Shown: in pieces, positions 5,459 through 61,893 of the stretch
How the letters are laid out: every line of letters begins with the position of its first letter
Position numbering within the stretch: position 1 is the first letter of the stretch
Assembly (NCBI RefSeq): GCF_041886205.1
Contig: NZ_CP169029.1
Reading direction: 5' to 3' (one strand)
DNA from: Escherichia coli
GTDB taxonomy: Bacteria; Pseudomonadota; Gammaproteobacteria; Enterobacterales; Enterobacteriaceae
DNA: 64,000 bases
Program-made: the position numbers and the translations under genes
Notes under the pieces: model-generated
The model's database searches: none
What the model saw: the letters and a program-made list of their open reading frames with translations, nothing else
Told to the model about the DNA's origin: nothing

Positions 5459-5534
5459 TGGTGCCGATAATAGGAGTCGAACCTACGACCTTCGCATTAC
5501 GAATGCGCTGCTCTACCAACTGAGCTATATCGGC
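5459..5534 (-). tRNA. thrW: tRNA-Thr
   Basis: Reverse complement reads GCCGATATAGCTCAGTTGGTAGAGCAGCGCATTCGTAATGCGAAGGTCGTAGGTTCGACTCCTATTATCGGCACCA (cloverleaf, CGU anticodon context, 3' CCA); located next to proA as expected for thrW. Confidence 0.9.
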
Positions 5535-11912: not shown

Positions 11913-13370
11913 GTGTCTGAACTGTCTCAATTATCTCCACAGCCGCTGTGGGATATTTTTGCCAAAATCTGTTCTATTCCTCACCCGTCCTATCATGAAG
12001 AGCAACTCGCTGAATACATTGTTGGTTGGGCAAAAGAGAAAGGTTTCCATGTCGAACGCGATCAGGTAGGTAATATCCTGATTCGTAAACCTGCTACCGC
12101 AGGTATGGAAAATCGTAAACCGGTCGTCTTACAGGCCCACCTCGATATGGTGCCGCAGAAAAATAACGACACCGTGCATGACTTCACGAAAGATCCTATC
12201 CAGCCTTATATTGATGGCGAATGGGTTAAAGCGCGCGGCACCACGCTGGGTGCGGATAACGGCATTGGTATGGCCTCTGCGCTGGCGGTTCTGGCTGACG
12301 AAAACGTGGTTCACGGCCCGCTGGAAGTGCTGCTGACCATGACCGAAGAAGCCGGTATGGACGGTGCGTTCGGCTTACAGAGCAACTGGTTGCAGGCTGA
12401 TATTCTGATTAACACCGACTCCGAAGAAGAAGGTGAAATCTACATGGGTTGCGCGGGGGGTATCGACTTCACCTCCAACCTGCATTTAGATCGTGAAGAG
12501 GTTCCAGCTGGTTTTGAAACCTTCAAGTTAACCTTAAAAGGTCTGAAAGGCGGTCACTCCGGCGGTGAAATCCACGTTGGCCTGGGTAATGCCAACAAAC
12601 TGCTGGTGCGCTTCCTGGCGGGTCATGCAGAAGAACTGGACCTGCGTCTTATTGATTTCAACGGCGGCACACTGCGTAACGCCATCCCGCGTGAAGCCTT
12701 TGCGACCATTGCTGTTGCAGCTGATAAAGTCGACGCCCTGAAATCTCTGGTGAATACCTATCAGGACATCCTGAAAAACGAGCTGGCAGAGAAAGAGAAG
12801 AATCTGGCCTTGTTGCTGGACTCTGTAGCGAACGATAAAGCTGCTCTGATTGCGAAATCTCGCGATACCTTTATTCGTCTGCTGAACGCCACCCCGAACG
12901 GTGTGATCCGCAACTCCGACGTGGCAAAAGGTGTGGTCGAAACCTCCCTGAACGTCGGTGTGGTGACCATGACTGACAATAACGTAGAAATTCACTGCCT
13001 GATCCGTTCTCTGATCGACAGCGGTAAAGACTACGTGGTGAGCATGCTGGATTCGCTGGGTAAACTGGCTGGCGCGAAAACCGAAGCGAAAGGCGCATAT
13101 CCTGGCTGGCAGCCGGACGCTAATTCTCCGGTGATGCATCTGGTACGTGAAACCTATCAGCGTCTGTTCAACAAGACGCCGAACATCCAGATTATCCACG
13201 CGGGCCTGGAATGTGGTCTGTTCAAAAAACCGTATCCGGAAATGGACATGGTTTCTATCGGGCCAACAATCACCGGTCCACACTCTCCGGATGAGCAAGT
13301 TCACATCGAAAGCGTAGGTCATTACTGGACACTGCTGACTGAACTGCTGAAAGAAATTCCGGCGAAGTAA
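11913..13370 (+). CDS. pepD: Cytosol non-specific dipeptidase (aminoacyl-histidine dipeptidase), M20 family
   Basis: GTG start; 485 aa MSELSQLSPQPLWDIFAKICSIPHPSYHEEQLAEYIVGWAKEKGFHVERD... Confidence 0.95.
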   Translation: MSELSQLSPQPLWDIFAKICSIPHPSYHEEQLAEYIVGWAKEKGFHVERDQVGNILIRKPATAGMENRKPVVLQAHLDMVPQKNNDTVHDFTKDPIQPYIDGEWVKARGTTLGADNGIGMASALAVLADENVVHGPLEVLLTMTEEAGMDGAFGLQSNWLQADILINTDSEEEGEIYMGCAGGIDFTSNLHLDREEVPAGFETFKLTLKGLKGGHSGGEIHVGLGNANKLLVRFLAGHAEELDLRLIDFNGGTLRNAIPREAFATIAVAADKVDALKSLVNTYQDILKNELAEKEKNLALLLDSVANDKAALIAKSRDTFIRLLNATPNGVIRNSDVAKGVVETSLNVGVVTMTDNNVEIHCLIRSLIDSGKDYVVSMLDSLGKLAGAKTEAKGAYPGWQPDANSPVMHLVRETYQRLFNKTPNIQIIHAGLECGLFKKPYPEMDMVSIGPTITGPHSPDEQVHIESVGHYWTLLTELLKEIPAK

Positions 13371-13382
13371 TTATTTGATTTG

Positions 13383-13414
13383 CTGCCGGATGGCGTTTAA
13401 TCGCCTTCCGGCAG
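13383..13414. terminator. Putative bidirectional terminator between convergent pepD and prfH
   Basis: Imperfect inverted repeat CTGCCGGATGGCG...CGCCTTCCGGCAG in the 56-bp gap. Confidence 0.4.
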
Positions 13415-13426
13415 TTTCATCCTTCA

Positions 13427-14041
13427 TTATCCTTCGATAAAAGCCATCCCTGTAAATGTCCGTCTCGGGTTGCCACGTTCAATCTGGTGATGGAACATTC
13501 GCCGCTGCGATTTCAGCACCGCGCTATTTTCCTGTTGCTGCTGCTCCAGCTTCCAGGCAATCAGCAATCGTGCCAGCCGCTTGTTAGCATGCTGACTACG
13601 CTCTGACTGAACCTTCACGCTAATACCGGATGCCAAATGCGTGGCGCGTACCGCCGAGTCGGTTTTATTGACATGTTGACCGCCCGGCCCCGACGAACGC
13701 AACGTCTCATAACGGATTGCATCCGATTGTTCCTGCTCATCAGCGGTAAAACGCCCAATGCCCAGAAACCAGTTTTTGCGCCCATGATGAGGCCGATACG
13801 GACTCGGACAAATCCACTGAATAGTGCCGCACCAACTTTCGCTTAATGCCCATGCGTTATCGCCATCCAGAGAAACCAGCGCTGAACGCAGCGTGTCAGA
13901 GTAGCGGCCCGTTTCGGTTTCCAGCACCGTTACCGCGACGTCTTGTCGGGCAGCTTCTTTAATTAGCCTGTCCAGCGCCTTTTTCACTGCGAGACAACAT
14001 TCTTCCGGCCCCTGCGCTGAGGAGAGTTGAAGCAAGATCAT
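13427..14041 (-). CDS. prfH: Peptide chain release factor homologue PrfH (RF-H), apparently full length
   Basis: Product from [16 protein letters not shown]... with the GGQ motif ([16 protein letters not shown]) of class-I release factors, about 204 aa; start ATG overlaps the upstream rtcB stop (ATGA at 14038-14041). Confidence 0.85.
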
Positions 14042-15204
14042 CCTTTTTTCCCTCCACTGTTTTTGAGCGTTAGCACCGGACGCAGCCGCGCGACAGGAAT
14101 AATTAAACCGGCCTGCACCAGACATTGCACCACGCTTTCAGCCGATTTATAGGCTTGTGGCGCTTCTTCAAAGATGAGTTGTTTATCGCGACAAATTACC
14201 CGACTGCCAAGTTCAGTACGCGAGAGTTGCGTCGCTGTGTATTTCGCTGCCAGACGCCCTTTACACTCGGTGCGCCCCCATTTACGCCCAGCCCCATGCG
14301 CCAGCGAGTGGAGCGTTTTTTCATTCGCAACAGGCTGTACAAGCCAGGAGTAATCACCGCGTGAACCGGGAATAATCACCAGACCGTTGTCATCCGGCGT
14401 GGCACCTTTACGATGCAACCAGCCCTGTTGATCGCCGATTTGACAGGCGCTAACAAAGTTATGCGCCACATCCAGAACCGGACTTCCGATAGCCTTAACT
14501 TGTTGCATTATGCGTAAAGCGATCAGCTGGCGATTAATACGCGCAAACGCCAGCGCATCGTCATGTTCCGCAATATACCGTAGCGTGTCGTCACTGCCTT
14601 CAGGCAAACCATGATGCGAAAACGAGGCAATATGCCGCTGTAAAATAGACTGCCCCAACCCCCGCGAGCCGCTATGAACCAACAGTTGCAGATGTTGTGC
14701 ATCCAGACCTGCCAGTGCAAACTGTTCAGCGTTGATGATTTGATCAACTTGTTGCAGTTCAGCGAAATGATTGCCGCCACCGATAGAGCCAAGCGAGCTG
14801 CGCCACGGATGCTGTGCAAATGCTGACGGCAGGTTTTCCTCCAGCCAGCTTTCTTCAGCAACGTCATCCAGATCTGATAATCGCTTTTCAAACTTATCGG
14901 CGTTGTATTTGCGAGCGAGAATATCTGTTTGCCATAGCGCCATGCCGCAGCCGATATCATTGCCGACCAGTGCCGGATAAAAACGGCCTGCGGAGAAGAA
15001 CGCTGCGCCAATCGGATAGCCGCGTCCGGGATGTAAATCTGGCATCCCCACTACGCGCTGCATGTTGGGTAAATTTGCCGTGGTGTGTAATTGTAGGATC
15101 GCTAAACTCTCGATCCACAGGTCATCAGATGCGATGGTAAATACCGCATCGGATAAGGGACGAATATAATTGCCCATATACCATTCCGTAAATAGACTCG
15201 TCAT
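14038..15204 (-). CDS. rtcB: RtcB-family RNA ligase paralogue (RtcB2-type; ykfJ position), apparently intact
   Basis: 388 aa with RtcB hallmarks (...[10 protein letters not shown]..., ...[13 protein letters not shown]..., ...[12 protein letters not shown]...); translationally coupled to prfH. Confidence 0.85.
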
Positions 15205-15422
15205 ACTTCAAGTTGCATGTGCTGCGACTTGAATTATTGAGAGTAACAATTAAAAAATCAGGAAATGGCAGACGAATCCAGGGCAAGAAAAAAAGAATTA
15301 ATCCTGGAAAGGTCTGCAAAGAGTCATTGATAAAGGATTTGTCATGATTTACCTCCTTGCAGTTTGTGGAATAAGAAAACGCGCACATATTAGGCGGGCG
15401 TTATTTTCATTGCAAGCTGGAT

Positions 15423-15875
15423 TTAATGTTGCGGTTTATAACGCATATAAAAATTAATAAACCACGCTCCCCGGCATTCAACGCGCTGCTGCTTAACTGT
15501 CTGAAAACCATAACGTTCAAAAAAGGGTTTTGCGGTTATGCTGGCGTCCACCGTAAGTTCGGATTCAGACTTAATCAAAGGTTTTAACAAAGCGCTGGCA
15601 ACCCCACGGCGGGTGTATTCAGGGTCAACAAATAACATATCGATATAATGTTCAATGCGGGAAATAAAACCAACCGGTTGTGCATTAATGACCGCAACCC
15701 ACACTTGTGATTTCGCGAGTTTCTCCTTCCAGCAAGATTCGTCAATCTGCGCCCAGGCGGCAATTTGTTGTGGAGAATAGTGCTGACTGGCGGTCATCGT
15801 AACCGCTCTAATAAAAATAGCGCATAGTTGCTGAAAATCGCCAGGCTGATAGTTTCTTATTTGTATGTTATTCAT
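15423..15875 (-). CDS. yafP: GNAT-family N-acetyltransferase YafP
   Basis: 150 aa [25 protein letters not shown]...; start overlaps the dinB stop by 4 bp. Confidence 0.85.
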
Positions 15876-16927
15876 AATCCCAGCACCAGTTGTCTTTCCA
15901 TTTGAGGGTCAAGCAACGTCACATGCAGCCCCACCAGTCGCACACCGCGCCCACCGCGGCGTTCATCCCAGGTTTTACGCGCGGTGGCGATTAAGTCAGC
16001 TTTATTCAGCCGCGGCCAGACATGCTCCTGGGTGGTTTGCTGAAAATCGTCGAACTTTAATTTCACCCCCTGGCGAGCAATCAGTAAATCAGGTTTTACC
16101 TTTGCCAGACGGCGTTCAAGTTCCGGATACAGCCGCTCGATAATCGCTTCACATTCAGACCAGTGATGAATATCTTCCGCCATCGTGCGTTCCACGCCGA
16201 CGGATTTTCGCAACCGTTCGCTGTTAACGTCGCGCTCGTCAATCCCCTGACTACGCTCCCACAAAATGCGGCCAAATTTGCCAAAGCGTTTAAGCAGCAT
16301 CACCAGATCACACTTTTGTACATCACCGCAGGTCCGCAGCCCCATCGCTTCCAGCTTCGCCGCTGAGACTTTGCCAACACCGGGAATTTTTGCCAGCGGT
16401 AAGGTTTGCAGAAATGCCGGAACTTCCGCCGGAGTAATCACAAACTGGCCGTTGGGTTTATTCATGTCGGAGGCGATTTTGGCGAGAAACTTTACTGGTG
16501 CCACGCCCGCAGACGCCGTCAGTTGTAGCTCGTTGAAAATCGTCTGGCGGATTTCCTGGGCGATGAGGGTCGCAGAACCGTGGCAATGGACGCTGTCGGT
16601 GACATCGAGATAGGCTTCATCCAGTGACAACGGTTCAATGCGCGAGGTGTAGCGCGAGAAGATTTCACGGATATGATTTGAGGCTTCTTTGTAGGCGTCA
16701 AAGCGCCCCGGAAGCAAGGTGAGATATGGGCATAATTTGAGCGCCATCCCTGTCGGCATAGCGCTACGTACGCCAAATTTACGCGCGGGGTAATTGGCGG
16801 TGCTGATCACCCCCCGACGTTCACGGCTGCCGCCAATAGCAATAGGGATATCGCGCAGGGCGGGATTGTCGCGCATCTCCACTGCGGCGAAAAAGCAGTC
16901 CATATCCACATGAATGATTTTACGCAT
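15872..16927 (-). CDS. dinB: DNA polymerase IV (Y-family translesion polymerase)
   Basis: 351 aa [58 protein letters not shown]... Confidence 0.95.
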
Positions 16928-16997: not shown

Positions 16998-17690
16998 TTA
17001 ACGCGTTCGCTGCGAAAGCACCTGCTGCTTATCCAGCTTTTGCACCAGCGGCTGCACCACCTTATCCCCATGCTGACCAAAGTATTGATACAGCGTATCG
17101 GACGCACTTTTGGTCAGCACCATAATCTCAATGCGTCGGTTGCCCGCGCTTTGCGGATTTTTGGAATCCAGCAGCATCTGGTCCGCCATCGCGCTCACCT
17201 GCATCACTTTATCTTCCGGCATTCCTGCCTCTTCCAGCACCCGACGAGCCGAAAGCGCGCGGTCACCCGAAAGGTTCCAGTTGTTGTAGATATTATTTTT
17301 GTAGGCCATCGCATCGGTATGCCCGGTAATAATAATTTTGTTATCGAGCGAGTCGAAAACTGGCGCGAGCTCCACCAGCAGCGTTTTAAAGAACGGCATA
17401 ATCTGCGCGCTACCGCGTTCGAACATATTGCGATTCTGGTCGTCTTTAATCAGCACGCGTAATCCCTGCGGGACAATCTCCATCTCCAGATTCGCTTCCA
17501 TATGCGCATCACGGGCAATGGTGTTGATACTGGTTGCCAGCTCGCCAAGCTCGGTGGCGGATTTCATCTTCAGCAGCGCCGTTTTCTCGTTGACGTCGCG
17601 CGCTTTTTTCTCCGTCTCTTCCGGCACCGCCACGGTGGCAGGTTTTGGCGGATGAGACGGGCTGATTTTATTTAACGGCGACAACCCGCC
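16998..17690 (-). pseudogene. lafU: lafU remnant: MotB-like lateral-flagellar motor protein lacking its N-terminal membrane segment (Flag-2 remnant)
   Basis: Translation carries the MotB/OmpA-like C-terminal domain (...NWNLSGDRALSARRVLEEAGMP...); the 5' part of the track ORF is antisense to lfhA and not credible coding sequence. Confidence 0.7.
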
Positions 17691-17759
17691 GCCATTGAAA
17701 ATCGACTGCCCGTGCAGCGCGGCGATAATGCTTTCACGCTCGGATTTACTGACGCTGTT

Positions 17760-19467
17760 GACAATCAACTTTATCGTCGTCACCAAAGGGGCCGAGCGTA
17801 TTTCCGAGGTTTCTGCCCGCTTTACCCTGGACGCGATGCCCGGTAAGCAGATGGCGATTGATGCCGATCTTAACGCCGGATTGATCAACCAGGCGCAGGC
17901 GCAATCCCGGCGTAAAGATGTTGCCAGCGAGGCCGATTTCTACGGCGCGATGGACGGGGCATCGAAGTTTGTGCGCGGAGACGCCATCGCCGGGATGATG
18001 ATTCTGGCGATCAACCTGATCGGCGGCGTCTGTATCGGCATCTTCAAATACAACCTGAGCGCCGACGCCGCCTTCCAGCAATACGTGCTGATGACCATCG
18101 GCGACGGCCTGGTGGCGCAGATCCCTTCCCTGCTGCTCTCCACCGCGGCGGCGATTATTGTCACCCGCGTCAGCGACAACGGCGATATTGCCCATGACGT
18201 GCGCCACCAGCTGCTGGCAAGCCCGTCGGTGCTCTACACCGCTACCGGGATTATGTTTGTGCTGGCGGTGGTGCCGGGGATGCCGCACCTGCCGTTTTTG
18301 CTGTTCAGCGCCCTGCTTGGCTTTACCGGCTGGCGGATGAGCAAGCGCCCACAGGCGGCGGAGGCGGAAGAGAAAAGCCTCGAAACGCTGACCCGCACCA
18401 TCACTGAAACCAGTGAGCAACAGGTCAGTTGGGAGACGATACCGCTGATCGAGCCCATCAGCTTAAGCCTGGGCTACAAGCTGGTAGCGCTGGTGGATAA
18501 AGCCCAGGGCAACCCGCTCACCCAGCGAATTCGCGGCGTGCGGCAGGTGATTTCTGACGGTAACGGCGTGCTGCTGCCTGAGATCCGCATTCGGGAAAAC
18601 TTCCGCCTCAAGCCCAGCCAGTACGCTATTTTCATCAACGGCATTAAGGCTGATGAAGCGGATATTCCGGCGGATAAACTGATGGCCCTGCCCTCCAGCG
18701 AAACCTACGGCGAGATTGACGGCGTGCTGGGGAACGACCCGGCGTACGGAATGCCGGTCACCTGGATCCAGCCCGCACAGAAAGCGAAGGCGCTGAATAT
18801 GGGGTATCAGGTGATCGACAGCGCCAGCGTGATTGCCACGCATGTGAATAAGATTGTGCGTAGCTATATTCCTGATTTATTTAACTATGACGATATTACG
18901 CAGTTGCATAACCGTTTGTCGTCGATGGCACCGCGCCTGGCGGAAGATTTAAGCGCGGCGCTGAATTACAGCCAGTTGCTGAAAGTGTACCGCGCGCTGC
19001 TGACCGAAGGCGTTTCCCTGCGCGATATCGTCACCATTGCCACCGTGCTGGTCGCCAGTAGCGCGGTGACCAAAGATCATATTCTGCTGGCAGCTGATGT
19101 GCGCCTGGCGCTGCGGCGAAGCATTACCCATCCGTTCGTTCGCAAGCAGGAGCTGACGGTGTATACGCTGAATAATGAGCTGGAAAATCTGCTGACCAAC
19201 GTGGTGAATCAGGCGCAACAGGGCGGGAAAGTGATGCTCGACAGCGTGCCGGTCGATCCGAATATGCTCAACCAGTTCCAGAGTACGATGCCGCAGGTAA
19301 AAGAGCAGATGAAAGCGGCGGGGAAAGATCCGGTGCTGCTGGTGCCGCCTCAGCTGCGCCCTTTGCTGGCGCGTTATGCAAGGTTGTTTGCGCCGGGGCT
19401 GCATGTGCTGTCGTATAACGAAGTGCCGGACGAGCTGGAGTTGAAGATAATGGGGGCGTTGATGTAA
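17760..19467 (+). pseudogene. lfhA: lfhA remnant: FlhA-family flagellar export protein lacking its N-terminal ~130 aa and promoter (Flag-2 remnant)
   Basis: Credible FlhA homology begins ...GAERISEVSARFTLDAMPGKQMAIDADLNAGLI... and runs to the stop at 19467; no FlhA N-terminus and no start context. Confidence 0.7.
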
Positions 19468-19479
19468 GTATCCGGCATT

Positions 19480-19784
<305 letters not shown>

Positions 19785-19790
<6 letters not shown>

Positions 19791-20282
19791 AATGATACGC
19801 TCGCCAGCATTTATATCCGTTACGTCCCCCGCCCAATCGATGGGATATAACCCTCGCGCGACATCGCGATGGAACGTTGAGAATGGCCAATCACTCACTT
19901 GCTTTACCCAACCATGCTTTACTGGATTTATATAAATATAATCAACATGATGCCTATAATCTTTGGTATTGCGGATGGCGTGCTCCCAAAAACGTGGTTG
20001 CCAGATATTTTTCAATCCACAAGCATGGGTAAATTGCTTTTTAATTTCCCGCCAGCGCGAGGAAAAATCATCATCGCCTTCAGGTAATGTCCAGATACAG
20101 TGCATATGCTCTGGCAAAACGACCCAGGCGTTGATTTCAAAAGGCCTGTCTCGCTTAACTTTAATAATGGCGTGACGGAGCATCTGGTACTGGGTGGTCA
20201 AGAGTTGGCTTCGACGATTGCGTAAATTCACCGTGAAAAACCAGGTTCCCCCCTTGATGTAATAACGACGATATTCAGACAT
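19785..20282 (-). CDS. rayT: REP-associated tyrosine transposase (RayT/TnpA-REP)
   Basis: 165 aa MSEYRRYYIKGGTWFFTVNLRNRR...; IS200/IS605-like HUH fold (...HMHCIW...); flanked on both sides by REP elements. Confidence 0.85.
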
Positions 20283-20372
20283 GGCGACTCCTTTTTCTCA
20301 ACGGTAAGAAGAAAAGGAAAGGTCGGTAATGAGGTGATGGAATAACAGGAAAGCGGCTCGCAAAAACGCACA

Positions 20373-21216
<844 letters not shown>

Positions 21217-21507
21217 AAACCGGCTGAATGAAGGTGAGAATTTTAAAAGACCGGAGGAGTAAACGGGATTATTAATTGCTTATTTGCATATTACTATTGA
21301 GGTTTCATAATCTTAGGAAATAAATGATACATGCGCTTTTCGGACTATTGAAAACTGCCCCTGTGCTAAATTTGTAAACCCAGCGCCGACAGGCTTGCGT
21401 AAAACTCTTTTGGTGATAATGTGAGCCTTCCAAATCCAGACTATTCCGATTTGGGATCCATTTTGCCGTCCTGGCGTGTGTAACCGTTTTATCAAGGAAT
21501 AAGCAGT

Positions 21508-22248
21508 ATGCGTAAAATCGCATTAATTCTTGCGATGTTGTTGATCCCGTGCGTTTCGTTTGCCGGTTTGCTGGGCAGCAGTAGCTCGACCACGCCAGTG
21601 AGCAAAGAGTATAAGCAGCAGTTGATGGGATCCCCTGTCTACATCCAGATCTTCAAGGAAGAACGTACGCTCGATCTCTACGTCAAAATGGGCGAGCAAT
21701 ATCAACTGCTCGACAGCTATAAAATCTGTAAATATTCCGGCGGCTTAGGGCCAAAACAGCGTCAGGGCGATTTCAAAAGCCCGGAAGGGTTTTATAGCGT
21801 CCAGCGTAATCAGTTAAAACCAGACAGCCGTTACTACAAAGCGATTAATATTGGTTTCCCCAATGCCTATGACCGTGCGCATGGTTATGAAGGGAAATAC
21901 CTGATGATCCACGGCGATTGTGTTTCCATCGGCTGCTACGCAATGACCAATCAGGGTATTGATGAGATCTTCCAGTTCGTTACTGGTGCGCTGGTGTTTG
22001 GTCAGCCGAGCGTGCAAGTGAGTATTTACCCGTTCCGCATGACCGACGCCAATATGAAGCGCCATAAATATTCCAACTTTAAGGACTTCTGGGAGCAACT
22101 GAAGCCGGGTTACGACTACTTTGAGCAAACCCGTAAGCCACCGACCGTTTCTGTGGTCAATGGTCGTTACGTGGTCAGCAAGCCGTTAAGCCACGAAGTT
22201 GTGCAGCCACAACTGGCATCAAACTACACGCTCCCCGAGGCAAAATAA
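21508..22248 (+). CDS. yafK: L,D-transpeptidase-fold periplasmic protein YafK
   Basis: 246 aa with signal peptide [19 protein letters not shown] and YkuD-like core (...[15 protein letters not shown]...). Confidence 0.85.
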
Positions 22249-22986
22249 GCGCCATTCGCCTGGCATAATCTTTTGCCAGGTTTCATTGCCCGTCAGCGGC
22301 TGTGTTGCAATCACCGTGACCACATCATTCGGTGTGGTCTGCGAGCTGAAGTCGATTTCCACATCCTGATCCAGCAACGTTGCCACGCCAAACGGCGCGC
22401 GGCGGGTGATCCAGTGTAAATTAGTCGAGCAATACGCCATTACATAGCGCCCGTCAGAAAGCAGCATATTGAAAACGCCCTTCTGCCGCAGTTCATCCGC
22501 CAGTGAGGCGATATATTTAAACACTGCCGCCATGTTGCCCGGTGTACGCGGGTAACGCTGCGTTAATTTATGCAGCAGCCAGCAGAAGGCTTTTTCGCTG
22601 TCGGTTTCGCCTACCGGGCGGAAGTTGCCGGTTTCCAGTAATTTGTAGCCCGTCAGTTGTCCGTTATGGGCATAAGTCCAGTTACGCCCCCATAACTCGC
22701 GGGTAAATGGGTGAGTATTTTCCAGCGCCACCTCGCCCCGATTAGCCTGGCGAATATGAGCCACCACCGAACAGGATTTTATCGGGTAGTCCTGGACAAG
22801 TTTGGCGATGGGGGAATTAAAGCTGGGTTGTGGATCTTTAAATGTGCGACAGCCTTTACCTTCGTAAAAGGTAATGCCCCAGCCATCTTTATGTGGCCCG
22901 GTTCCACCACCACGCTGTACAAGTCCGGTGAAACTAAAGCAGATATCGGTAGGGACGTTGGCGCTCATCCCGAGCAATTCGCACAT
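22219..22986 (-). CDS. yafJ: Class-II glutamine amidotransferase-like protein YafJ
   Basis: Product from [19 protein letters not shown]... (N-terminal nucleophile Cys after Met); 3' end overlaps the 3' end of convergent yafK. Confidence 0.8.
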
Positions 22987-23049
22987 GGGTAACCTCCACA
23001 ACAGCGGGAGCGCATGGCCCCCGGCGAAGATTGATTTAAGAATTTTCAG

Positions 23050-23191
<142 letters not shown>

Positions 23192-61816: not shown

Positions 61817-61893
61817 TGGCGGAACGGACGGGACTCGAACCCGCGACCCCCTGCGTGACAGGCAGGTATTCTAACCGACTGAACTACCGCTCC
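61817..61893 (-). tRNA. aspV: tRNA-Asp
   Basis: Reverse complement reads GGAGCGGTAGTTCAGTCGGTTAGAATACCTGCCTGTCACGCAGGGGGTCGCGGGTTCGAGTCCCGTCCGTTCCGCCA (GUC anticodon); located next to dnaQ. Confidence 0.92.

Follow-up and report, generated by a model that had tools for sequence, protein, structure and literature searches.

The window, a stretch of 64,000 nucleotides of an Escherichia coli genome (contig NZ_CP169029.1), very probably carries the known RtcB2-PrfH operon for ribosome rescue and repair in intact form, judging by the sequence of both genes. The existence of this operon, its coupling, its deletion in K-12 and its function against E3-type nucleases are all published, and nothing in them is new. 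Novelty is confined to an unannotated leader mini-gene upstream of rtcB2, which probably determines when the module is expressed.

The rtcB2-prfH operon and its deletion in K-12

The two genes are located on the minus strand between yafP and pepD, where the initial annotation had proposed a full-length and translationally coupled pair. The features of the operon are as follows.

13427..14041, minus strand: prfH coding sequence, 204 aa plus stop codon; release-factor homologue H
14038..14041, minus strand: ATGA in which the end of rtcB2 overlaps the beginning of prfH (translational coupling; direct sequence reading)
14038..15177, minus strand: rtcB2 coding sequence, 379 aa plus stop codon; release-factor-H-coupled RtcB RNA ligase
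13951..14977, minus strand: segment deleted in K-12, 1027 bp, from pairwise alignment with NC_000913.3

Both reading frames were full length, with profile matches from end to end. RtcB2 matched the NCBIfam model NF007153 for RF-H-coupled RtcB over positions 1-378 of 379 (E = 1.4e-192, 639.8 bits, cut-off 407) and TIGR03073 over its full length (E = 9e-186, 617 bits, cut-off 271.8), and PrfH matched TIGR03072 over positions 1-200 of 200 (E = 6.9e-99, 329.3 bits, cut-off 166.65). These reading frames and family matches are far beyond chance. The rtcB2 stop codon (TGA, 14040-14038) lies on the prfH start codon (ATG, 14041-14039), which gives the claimed ATGA overlap. The same ATGA was found in Escherichia, Klebsiella, Citrobacter, Salmonella, Kosakonia, Cronobacter, Limnobaculum, Leminorella, and Entomohabitans; the junction reads TGATG in Pseudomonas, TAATG in Providencia, and TAAATG in Proteus. 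In strain 6EVA (99.9% identical), PGAP annotates the locus as two intact genes with the same rtcB2 start. The PADLOC defence-system models matched neither protein, and an Rfam search over 13000-16000 with E up to 1 returned nothing meaningful; we disregarded a weak STnc350 match, whose 21.6 bits fall short of the gathering score of 60.

A 2006 paper (PMC1586002) already described the operon, including its coupled translation and a deletion of about 1000 nt in K-12. K-12 ykfJ and prfH are annotated as pseudogenes, in line with the initial annotation, and 1027 bp are absent. Alignment demonstrated that K-12 lacks RtcB2 from about residue 68 onwards together with the first 30 or so codons of PrfH, and that the reading frames of the window are untruncated. 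The microhomology CCGGCA/CCGACA leaves the position of the deletion junction uncertain by a few nucleotides. At a threshold of at least 80%, the locus is carried by 2709 of the 5426 complete E. coli genomes. Since about half of the sequenced E. coli carry the module, an intact copy is ordinary and not particular to this strain.

A leader open reading frame upstream of rtcB2

Inspection of the region between yafP and rtcB2 revealed a short open reading frame (sORF) preceded by a Shine-Dalgarno (SD) sequence and a promoter-like motif.

15298..15358, minus strand: leader, with SD AAGGAGGT (15358-15351) and sORF MTNPLSMTLCRPFQD plus TAA (15345-15298); 15 codons, unannotated
15387..15415, minus strand: putative sigma-70 promoter of a leader-rtcB2-prfH transcript, with −35 TTGCAA (15415-15410), a 17-nt spacer and −10 TAATAT (15392-15387)

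The SD AAGGAGGT ends 5 nt 5' of the sORF start, whose ATG corresponds to K-12 coordinate 253,239 or thereabouts. In all 19 loci compared, which represent 14 genera, rtcB2 is preceded by an sORF of 13-15 codons that has a strong SD and encodes the motif [LIF]-C-[RG]. Of 5399 E. coli records, 5371 (99.5%) have the 117-nt leader with an identity of at least 99%, the comparable figure for 117 nt of neighbouring coding sequence being 22%. The leader is conserved also in K-12-type strains from which the operon has been deleted, and because identity of at least 99% persists there, it may have a separate role of its own.

In Pseudomonas aeruginosa, the leader PA5471.1 controls armZ-PA5470 by ribosome stalling (PMC3516279, PMC12057347, PMC13041342), and armZ (PA5471)-PA5470 (prfH) is an orthologous two-gene operon that belongs to the same NCBI cluster, PRK09588 (PMC3516279). 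We rebuilt PA5471.1 from the published primers as CCGCAAAGGAGGTTACATCG ATG ATT CAG TTC TCT ACC CTT TGC AGG. PA5471.1, the enterobacterial leaders and the leader of Pseudomonas YH-1 have the SD block and T-L-C-R codons in common; in P. aeruginosa the shared elements read GCAAAGGAGG for the SD and CTT TGC AGG within the T-L-C-R codons, and the rtcB/armZ initiation region is the same as well (ATGGATTGG..ATGGGCAA). By these shared elements, the E. coli leader is homologous to PA5471.1. The two differ in layout: the Pseudomonas leader has 13 codons, lies about 250 nt upstream and has proposed terminators, whereas the enterobacterial leader has 15 codons, lies 60-76 nt upstream and shows no evident canonical terminator. 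They differ also in what they serve, since ArmZ has come to act as an anti-repressor of MexZ in connection with the mexXY efflux pump. An indirect sign of induction by ribosome-stalling stress comes from K-12, where 4-azaleucine is reported to induce ykfJ (Morita 2006, cited in PMC3516279). In the literature searched, which excluded Morita 2006 and 2009, the E. coli leader is undescribed, the peptide sequence of the sORF does not occur, and ArmZ is never mentioned together with RtcB2 or colicin E3.

The putative promoter begins 8 nt past the yafP stop codon and overlaps a hairpin and U-run. A TTGnnn-17-TAnnnT motif was located 40-60 nt 5' of the sORF in 17 of the 19 loci, regardless of the upstream gene. 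A simple promoter and terminator scan over 13300-15900 gave no promoter 5' of rtcB2, and no terminator past the sORF or past prfH; it missed TTGCAA-17-TAATAT because this sequence agrees with the consensus at only 8 of 12 positions. A canonical intrinsic terminator, with hairpin and U-run, was not found between the sORF and rtcB2. It is improbable that the pair is expressed mainly by read-through of the SOS-regulated dinB-yafP operon and not from a promoter of its own leader. The rtcB2-prfH pair does lie on the same strand directly 3' of dinB-yafP, the order dinB-(yafP)-rtcB2-prfH-pepD is kept in Salmonella, Kosakonia, Cronobacter, and Entomohabitans, and the hairpin after yafP is imperfect; however, the promoter-like motif and the leader accompany rtcB2 despite an unrelated neighbour in Limnobaculum, Leminorella, Providencia, Proteus, and Pseudomonas, and in P. 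aeruginosa the leader is reported to be preceded by a constitutive promoter (PMC13041342). The read-through and own-promoter routes could coexist.

Conserved RNA helices in the leader

Two helices of the leader RNA were supported by covariation.

15268..15317, minus strand: hairpin P2, in which GCAGAC (15317-15312) and CCAGG (15307-15303) pair with CCTGG (15282-15278) and GTCTGC (15273-15268)
15181..15268, minus strand: helix P4, in which the pyrimidine element CCATTTC (15268-15262) pairs with GGAATGG (15187-15181)

P2 spans codons 10-15 of the sORF and its stop codon. It is the RNAalifold consensus, with compensatory changes in 4 of its 11 pairs; its sub-helices were 96% and 89% paired, and its covariation score was reached by none of 500 shuffles. 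The GGAATGG arm of P4 is located 4-10 nt 5' of the rtcB2 ATG, so that the helix covers the rtcB2 initiation region. P4 was 86% paired over the 14 genera, with three compensatory pairs (AU/UA central) and a score that again none of 500 shuffles reached, and it appears in the predicted minimum free energy (MFE) fold of the window sequence and of most species. Two further pairings were considered: P1 (leader SD with codons 8-11) is unproven, being in the MFE fold of most species and lacking covariation because both arms are invariant, and P3 (leader SD with the pyrimidine element) is weakly supported, with only 73% paired. In a thermodynamic simulation in which a ribosome masked codons 1-5, the rtcB2 initiation region opened only modestly (for example from 0.29 to 0.45 unpaired), and this opening was not seen in all species.

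Leader attenuators such as those of ermC and cat/cmlA sense ribosome inhibition through a short open reading frame with a strong SD, alternative pairings and a helix over the initiation region. The leader described here resembles them in these respects and has no sequence kinship with them. Unlike in those systems, the genes regulated here repair ribosomes and do not modify the ribosome or the drug, and the switching logic is predicted.

From the sequence comparisons we infer an operon with its own promoter, a leader peptide and conserved helices. Because the leader is homologous to PA5471.1 and its helices are conserved, expression probably rises when ribosomes stall on the leader. Control in enterobacteria is likely to act, in the predicted fold, at least partly through P4 occluding the rtcB2 initiation region. 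We lean towards the full reading, in which the 15-codon leader and an RNA switch homologous to PA5471.1 would govern enterobacterial rtcB2-prfH, such that stalling would induce its own repair module.

The rtcB2 start codon and an ERIC remnant in its 5' UTR

The region immediately upstream of rtcB2 contains an insertion that bears on the choice of its start codon.

15193..15250 (approximate), minus strand: internally deleted ERIC repeat within the rtcB2 5' UTR
15178..15204, minus strand: nine-codon 5' extension MTSLFTEWY, probably untranslated as part of RtcB2

We take the insert to be an ERIC repeat on the basis of the ERIC consensus. When six E. coli loci were aligned, the insert was absent from EC958 and CB7453, full (about 127 bp) in K-12 and WCHEC035148, and short in the window and 6EVA. 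The initial annotation gave rtcB a length of 388 aa, which is correct for the longest open reading frame (14038-15204) and not for the product, which has 379 aa and starts at ATG 15177 (MGNY...). We rejected the 388-aa start because ATG 15204 falls within the ERIC-derived insert, and the insert is missing from other E. coli, such as the B2 type, and from other genera. All RtcB2 homologues compared begin with MG(N/K)Y, and rtcB2 is preceded by only a weak SD-like sequence, GGAATGG. ATG 15177 is further backed by the PGAP annotation, the 379-position NCBIfam profile and the published numbering of H294 (PMC9304027).

We considered whether the genes might be intact but silent or decaying towards the K-12 state, the ERIC insert or the loss of an in-frame ATG having impaired their expression. 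An ERIC remnant does lie between the leader and rtcB2, the window has ACG where other E. coli have an upstream in-frame ATG, the operon has been lost in about half of E. coli, and the Intestinirhabdus locus is degraded, with prfH split and a 200-nt insert in the leader. Nevertheless, decay is very unlikely here: the window genes have no frameshift, premature stop or catalytic substitution, and the upstream ATG is absent in Citrobacter too. The ERIC remnant of the window strain falls, with a U-rich tract, within the loop of P4, and the predicted fold still contains this helix. An ERIC-like insert is present at the same site in K. spallanzanii, although rtcB2 could be read there only as far as a contig edge.

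Ribosome rescue and repair by RtcB2 and PrfH

The residues on which activity depends are kept in both proteins. Alignment with P. horikoshii RtcB placed the metal-binding and nucleophile residues D74, C77, N136, H137, H168, H239, and H294 of RtcB2 on D95, C98, N202, H203, H234, H329, and H404, so that none of the catalytic His/Cys residues is lost; H294 is the residue mutated in published work, in the same numbering as the 379-aa start (PMC9304027). RtcB2 is 96.6% identical to that of EC958 (B2), with 13 differing residues, none of them catalytic. In PrfH, the reported GGQ motif was confirmed as G120, G121, and Q122. PrfH is identical at 200 of 204 residues (98%) to chain 8 of PDB 7SA4, the nearest solved structure, and keeps R52, S53, R83, H85, H86, R88, K89, N90, R181, H184, and R189, which form the A1493-3'P pocket and the rRNA contacts (PMC9304027). 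It lacks RF domain 1, its alignment with RF2 beginning only at about residue 115-120.

Experiments on proteins 97-98% identical to these have carried the rescue and repair role beyond the proposal that the initial annotation mentioned. The evidence, published in 2022, came from in vitro assays, cryo-EM and in vivo work (PMC9304027), with further support from PMC13166195. PrfH releases peptide only from 70S ribosomes cut at A1493/G1494 of 16S rRNA and shows no activity on intact ones, and RtcB2 reseals cleaved 30S subunits; EcRtcB2 ligates 16S rRNA cleaved by E3 or CdiA in the 30S subunit, and not cleaved tRNAs (PMC9304027). Protection against colicin E3 was shown in 2022 by knockout and complementation in E. 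coli ATCC25922 (PMC9223846). The copy in the window had been put forward as a functional candidate worth testing: it is intact, but such copies are common and the proposed colicin test is already published. That the RtcB2 of the window ligates cleaved 30S rRNA is assumed from its 96.6% identity to the B2-type protein.

In the mechanism shown for those nearly identical proteins, a colicin E3-type or CdiA-CT nuclease cleaves 16S rRNA between A1493 and G1494 and leaves a stalled ribosome. PrfH, having no RF domain 1 and reading no codon, occupies the A site and binds the new 3'-phosphate end in a pocket of R83, H86, R88, and R189. Its GGQ motif (Q122) then hydrolyses the peptidyl-tRNA, allowing the 70S ribosome to disassemble. 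In the 30S subunit thus set free, the cut in 16S rRNA is sealed by RtcB2, a GTP/Mn-dependent 3'-P/5'-OH ligase with H294 as nucleophile. The ATGA overlap couples translation of the two proteins.

Compared with the characterized E. coli systems (ATCC25922, CFT073-type, PDB 7SA4), the window has the same position between yafP and pepD, gene order and ATGA. PrfH is 98% and RtcB2 about 97% identical to the ATCC25922 and CFT073-type proteins, with identical functional residues; the protein differences are allelic only (13 in RtcB2, 3-4 in PrfH), and the window has a short ERIC remnant and no yafNO upstream. RtcB1 of E. coli rtcBA (RtcB1-RtcA) shares the ligase fold, His-GMP and 3'-P/5'-OH sealing, but it is only about 28% identical, is sigma-54/RtcR regulated, is paired with a cyclase and not a release factor, and repairs tRNA and not the E3-cleaved 30S subunit (PMC9304027). 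CgPrfH of Capnocytophaga (PDB 9MOR/9MQ4) and ArfB are likewise GGQ peptidyl-tRNA hydrolases that rescue without a stop codon (PMC12829566). In CgPrfH (231 aa, as in 9MOR), however, a C-terminal tail adds rescue of intact non-stop ribosomes, whereas the PrfH of the window (204 aa) ends with the 7SA4 chain and is tailless. The PrfH of the window belongs to the damage-specific EcPrfH subfamily and not to that of CgPrfH.

The notion that RtcB is a general tRNA/mRNA ligase of the rtcBA/RtcB1 kind and PrfH an ordinary stop-codon release factor draws on their membership in the broad RtcB (PF01139) and RF-1 (PF00472) superfamilies, but it is scarcely credible and already refuted for the 97-98% identical proteins, given that the top matches are RF-H-coupled subfamily models and not generic RtcB, that PrfH, without RF domain 1, aligns only from about residue 115 of RF2, and that EcRtcB2 performs no tRNA repair and EcPrfH does not act on intact ribosomes (PMC9304027).

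Implications of a possible leader control

The RtcB2-PrfH literature searched does not address how the native operon is switched on, and for this reason the regulatory layer could matter. On the leader, the papers covered on E. coli ribosome repair and those on Pseudomonas MexXY/ArmZ are unconnected. If true, a leader acting as a PA5471.1-like stalling sensor would give a concrete answer to how the operon is switched on, and leader control could help to account for the partial phenotypes seen at native-level expression in published knockouts. In enterobacteria, it would also connect ribosome repair with antibiotic-induced stalling and with contact-dependent and colicin-based warfare.

Integrity of the rtcB2-prfH operon

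The gene order in this E. coli chromosome window is crl-frsA-gpt-pepD, followed on the opposite strand by prfH-rtcB-yafP-dinB-lafU. The two reading frames of the operon are:

14041-13427, minus strand: prfH, 204 aa
15204-14038, minus strand: longest rtcB ORF, 388 aa

The initial annotation described both ORFs as full length and joined by an ATGA overlap. End-to-end profile matches bear out the full length: RtcB matched NCBIfam NF007153 at profile positions 1-378 of 379 (E 1.4e-192, 639.8 bits, cut-off 407) and also TIGR03073 ('release_rtcB'), and PrfH matched TIGR03072 at positions 1-200 of 200 (E 6.9e-99). The rtcB stop TGA (14040-14038) overlaps the prfH ATG (14041-14039). Where the genes are intact, RefSeq already labels them 'RNA ligase RtcB family protein' and 'prfH: peptide chain release factor H'. 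Two database proteins (522 and 583 aa; 96% and 83% identity) contain PF01139 (RtcB) and PF00472 (RF-1) in one polypeptide; these apparent RtcB2-PrfH fusions may be genuine products of a −1 frameshift at the ATGA overlap or may stem from errors in sequencing.

Window PrfH is identical at 200 of 204 residues to the PrfH chain of PDB 7SA4, differing by K20R, A31T, V56I, and V175A. The GGQ motif reported from the sequence is G120-G121-Q122, and all contacts named from cryo-EM are kept (R52, S53, R83, H85, H86, R88, K89, N90, R181, H184, and R189; PMC9304027). Loss of RtcB catalytic residues had been named as a possible objection; alignment with the Pyrococcus horikoshii and Thermus RtcB structures revealed that D74, C77, N136, H137, H168, H239, and H294 are all kept, corresponding to P. 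horikoshii D95, C98, N202, H203, H234, H329, and H404. RtcB2 of the B2 strain EC958 is 96.6% identical, with none of its 13 differences at a catalytic residue. The window genes are intact and coupled, with all required residues present.

In K-12, ykfJ and prfH are annotated pseudogenes, in agreement with the initial annotation. Alignment demonstrated that K-12 lacks 1027 bp (window 13951-14977), with a short CCGGCA/CCGACA microhomology at the junction. The deletion takes away the C-terminal part of RtcB2, starting near residue 68, together with the first ~30 PrfH codons. Among 5426 complete E. coli genomes, 2709 retain 80% or more of the 2.2-kb locus; in the others, coverage is 54% (K-12-type deletion) or 46% (further decay).

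Start codon of rtcB2

The length of 388 aa holds for the longest ORF, but the true start is most probably ATG 15177, giving a product of 379 aa. The start at ATG 15204 was rejected because this codon belongs to an insert not present in B2-type E. coli. All homologues share the N-terminus MG(N/K)Y, encoded from the ATG that corresponds to 15177, PGAP gives the protein 379 aa in strain 6EVA (99.9% identical), the NF007153 profile has 379 positions, and the published catalytic H294 is compatible only with the 379-aa numbering. A further in-frame ATG lies four codons 5' of the annotated start in most E. coli, Klebsiella, and Kosakonia (window 15178-15189; context ATG-GAA/GAT-TGG-TAC/TAT-ATG-GGC); the window has ACG in its place, and Citrobacter has CAG.

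A conserved leader upstream of rtcB2

The 245-nt spacer between yafP and rtcB2 is not neutral. It contains the following features:

15262-15415, minus strand: unannotated leader with promoter-like TTGCAA-17-TAATAT, perfect Shine-Dalgarno (SD) sequence, sORF, and conserved helices
15345-15298, minus strand: sORF of 15 codons, MTNPLSMTLCRPFQD, 5 nt after a perfect AAGGAGGT
~15193-15250: short, internally deleted ERIC repeat in the rtcB2 5' UTR, within the P4 loop (six-locus E. coli alignment)

Upstream of rtcB2, an SD and sORF in this arrangement occur in every one of the 19 loci analysed (14 genera), which covered four Escherichia lineages, two Klebsiella, Citrobacter, an Enterobacteriaceae MAG, Salmonella, Intestinirhabdus, Kosakonia, Cronobacter, Entomohabitans, Limnobaculum, Leminorella, Providencia, Proteus, and Pseudomonas sp. 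YH-1. Most of the sORFs have 15 codons, that of Providencia 14 and that of Pseudomonas 13. Variation is free in the N-terminal half, and CTT-TGC-AG(A/G) (Leu-Cys-Arg) is fixed, synonymous sites included. In 17 of the 19 loci, a promoter-like TTGnnn-17-TAnnnT is found 40-60 nt upstream of the sORF, regardless of the upstream gene. Within E. coli, 5371 of 5399 records (99.5%) match the unannotated 117-nt leader (window 15256-15372) at 99% identity or more; for the neighbouring 117 nt of rtcB2 coding sequence, only 1182 of 5407 (22%) do. This invariance extends to K-12/O157-type genomes from which rtcB2-prfH is deleted.

The 5' UTR insert is a putative ERIC element. The site is empty in EC958 and CB7453, holds a full ~127-bp insert in K-12, and holds the short form in the window and 6EVA. 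An ERIC-like insert also occupies the corresponding position in Klebsiella spallanzanii (L012); this position looks like an insertion hot spot.

Relation to PA5471.1 of Pseudomonas aeruginosa

The orthologous operon of P. aeruginosa consists of armZ (PA5471; same PRK09588 cluster) and PA5470 (prfH) (PMC3516279), and is controlled by a 13-aa leader peptide, PA5471.1, a sensor of ribosome stalling (PMC3516279, PMC12057347, PMC13041342). Using the mutagenic primers listed in the PMC13041342 supplement, we rebuilt the PA5471.1 leader as CCGCAAAGGAGGTTACATCG ATG ATT CAG TTC TCT ACC CTT TGC AGG (MIQFSTLCR...); the armZ start from the same primers is ATGGATTGGATTATGGGCAAC. Both match the enterobacterial blocks, and by this sequence match the window sORF is a homologue of PA5471.1. 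According to a review, K-12 ykfJ is inducible by 4-azaleucine (PMC3516279).

Co-mention of ArmZ with RtcB2 or colicin E3 was not found in the searchable literature, and the RtcB2-PrfH papers mention neither a leader nor ArmZ or PA5471. Enterobacterial PA5471.1 homologues may have been noticed before, for example in the original Morita papers.

Predicted structure of the leader RNA

Fourteen leaders were aligned with MAFFT, the alignment not being fitted to any structure. The RNAalifold consensus was a single hairpin, P2 (GCAGRY/RYCUGC and CCAGG/CCUGG), spanning sORF codons 10-15 and the stop codon. Its sub-helices are 96% and 89% paired, 4 of 11 pairs show compensatory changes, and none of 500 shuffles reached its covariation score. 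Directly 3' of P2, the pyrimidine element CCAWUUC (15268-15262) pairs with GGAWUGG (15187-15181), 4-10 nt upstream of the rtcB2 AUG. This helix, P4, is 86% paired with three compensatory pairs (central AU to UA); its score was likewise reached by 0/500 shuffles, slid controls scored far lower. The ERIC insertions sit in the P4 loop, and the helix is still predicted in the window.

The P1 helix would join the leader SD region (CUGCAAAGG) to codons 8-11 (CCUUUGCAG) and is present in most predicted ground states; P1 and P2 are mutually exclusive. No covariation was seen in P1 among the 14 leaders, because both arms are invariant. Pairing of the leader SD with the pyrimidine element of P4 (P3) is weak. 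When a ribosome footprint was masked in simulation at different leader codons, the rtcB2 initiation region became only modestly more open, and this was not seen in every species.

Other features of the locus and window

In the window, yafP directly follows dinB with a 4-nt overlap (15872-15875). The K-12 toxin-antitoxin pair yafN-yafO, between dinB and yafP, is absent from the window, 6EVA, EC958, and WCHEC035148, and yafO is a pseudogene in CB7453. In some E. coli (CB7453 locus L004, 1580-2387), two additional genes separate prfH from pepD. One, on the prfH strand, encodes a 'metal-dependent hydrolase' of 169 aa and the other a hypothetical protein of 93 aa; this may be a third locus member in those lineages. 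The Intestinirhabdus locus (L016, 1200-3312) is decaying: prfH is broken into two ORFs (144 and 61 aa), neither with an RF-1 match, and the leader hairpin loop contains an insertion of ~200 nt.

Between convergent pepD and prfH, a 13-bp imperfect hairpin (13383-13414; CTGCCGGATGGCG...CGCCTTCCGGCAG) is probably a bidirectional terminator; a simple terminator scan did not call it. A Flag-2 (lateral flagella) scar, laid out as in K-12, occupies 16998-19467, with lafU and an overlapping, N-terminally truncated flhA-like lfhA ORF. Four Rfam naRNA4 copies (RF02564, REP-derived nucleoid-associated RNA; 63-80 bits) lie on the minus strand at 19544-23181. The tRNA genes are:

5459-5534: tRNA-Thr(CGT)
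61817-61893: tRNA-Asp(GTC)

Discussion

The rescue/repair role initially proposed for rtcB-prfH is correct, and both this interpretation and the suggested colicin E3 experiment are already published. Baranov et al. (2006) described the operon, its likely translational coupling, and a ~1000-nt deletion in K-12 and O157 (PMC1586002). Tian et al. (2022) found that EcPrfH releases peptides only on 70S ribosomes cut at A1493/G1494, and solved the structure of the EcPrfH-ribosome complex. In the same work, EcRtcB2 repaired damaged 30S subunits by ligation but did not act on tRNAs, and the two proteins together reversed E3-like toxin damage in vivo (PMC9304027). Colicin E3 knockout and complementation were carried out by Maviza et al. 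(2022) in ATCC25922 and the K-12 derivative BW25113 (PMC9223846). A 2026 paper refined the kinetics (PMC13166195), and a tailed PrfH subfamily has been defined (PMC12829566). In the literature on these near-identical proteins, ribosomes stall once a toxin has cut them at A1493/G1494. PrfH hydrolyses the peptidyl-tRNA upon recognising the 3'-phosphate end, and once the subunits have come apart, the 16S rRNA of the 30S subunit is sealed by RtcB2 (H294-GMP).

For control of the operon, we infer with moderate confidence that rtcB2-prfH would have a promoter of its own and that transcription from it would run through a translated leader. Ribosome occupancy of this leader would decide between the alternative pairings (P1/P2, P4), so that stalled ribosomes would raise rtcB2-prfH expression. 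In enterobacteria, control would most likely be exerted by P4 occluding the rtcB2 initiation region. Termination, Rho-dependent or intrinsic, is a possible means of control; no canonical hairpin-plus-U-run terminator was found between the sORF and rtcB2.

The finding as first written is ordinary, because its interpretation was already published and the locus is common. The remaining interest lies in the unannotated, near-invariant leader of the PA5471.1 type, which is kept even in K-12-type genomes without the operon.
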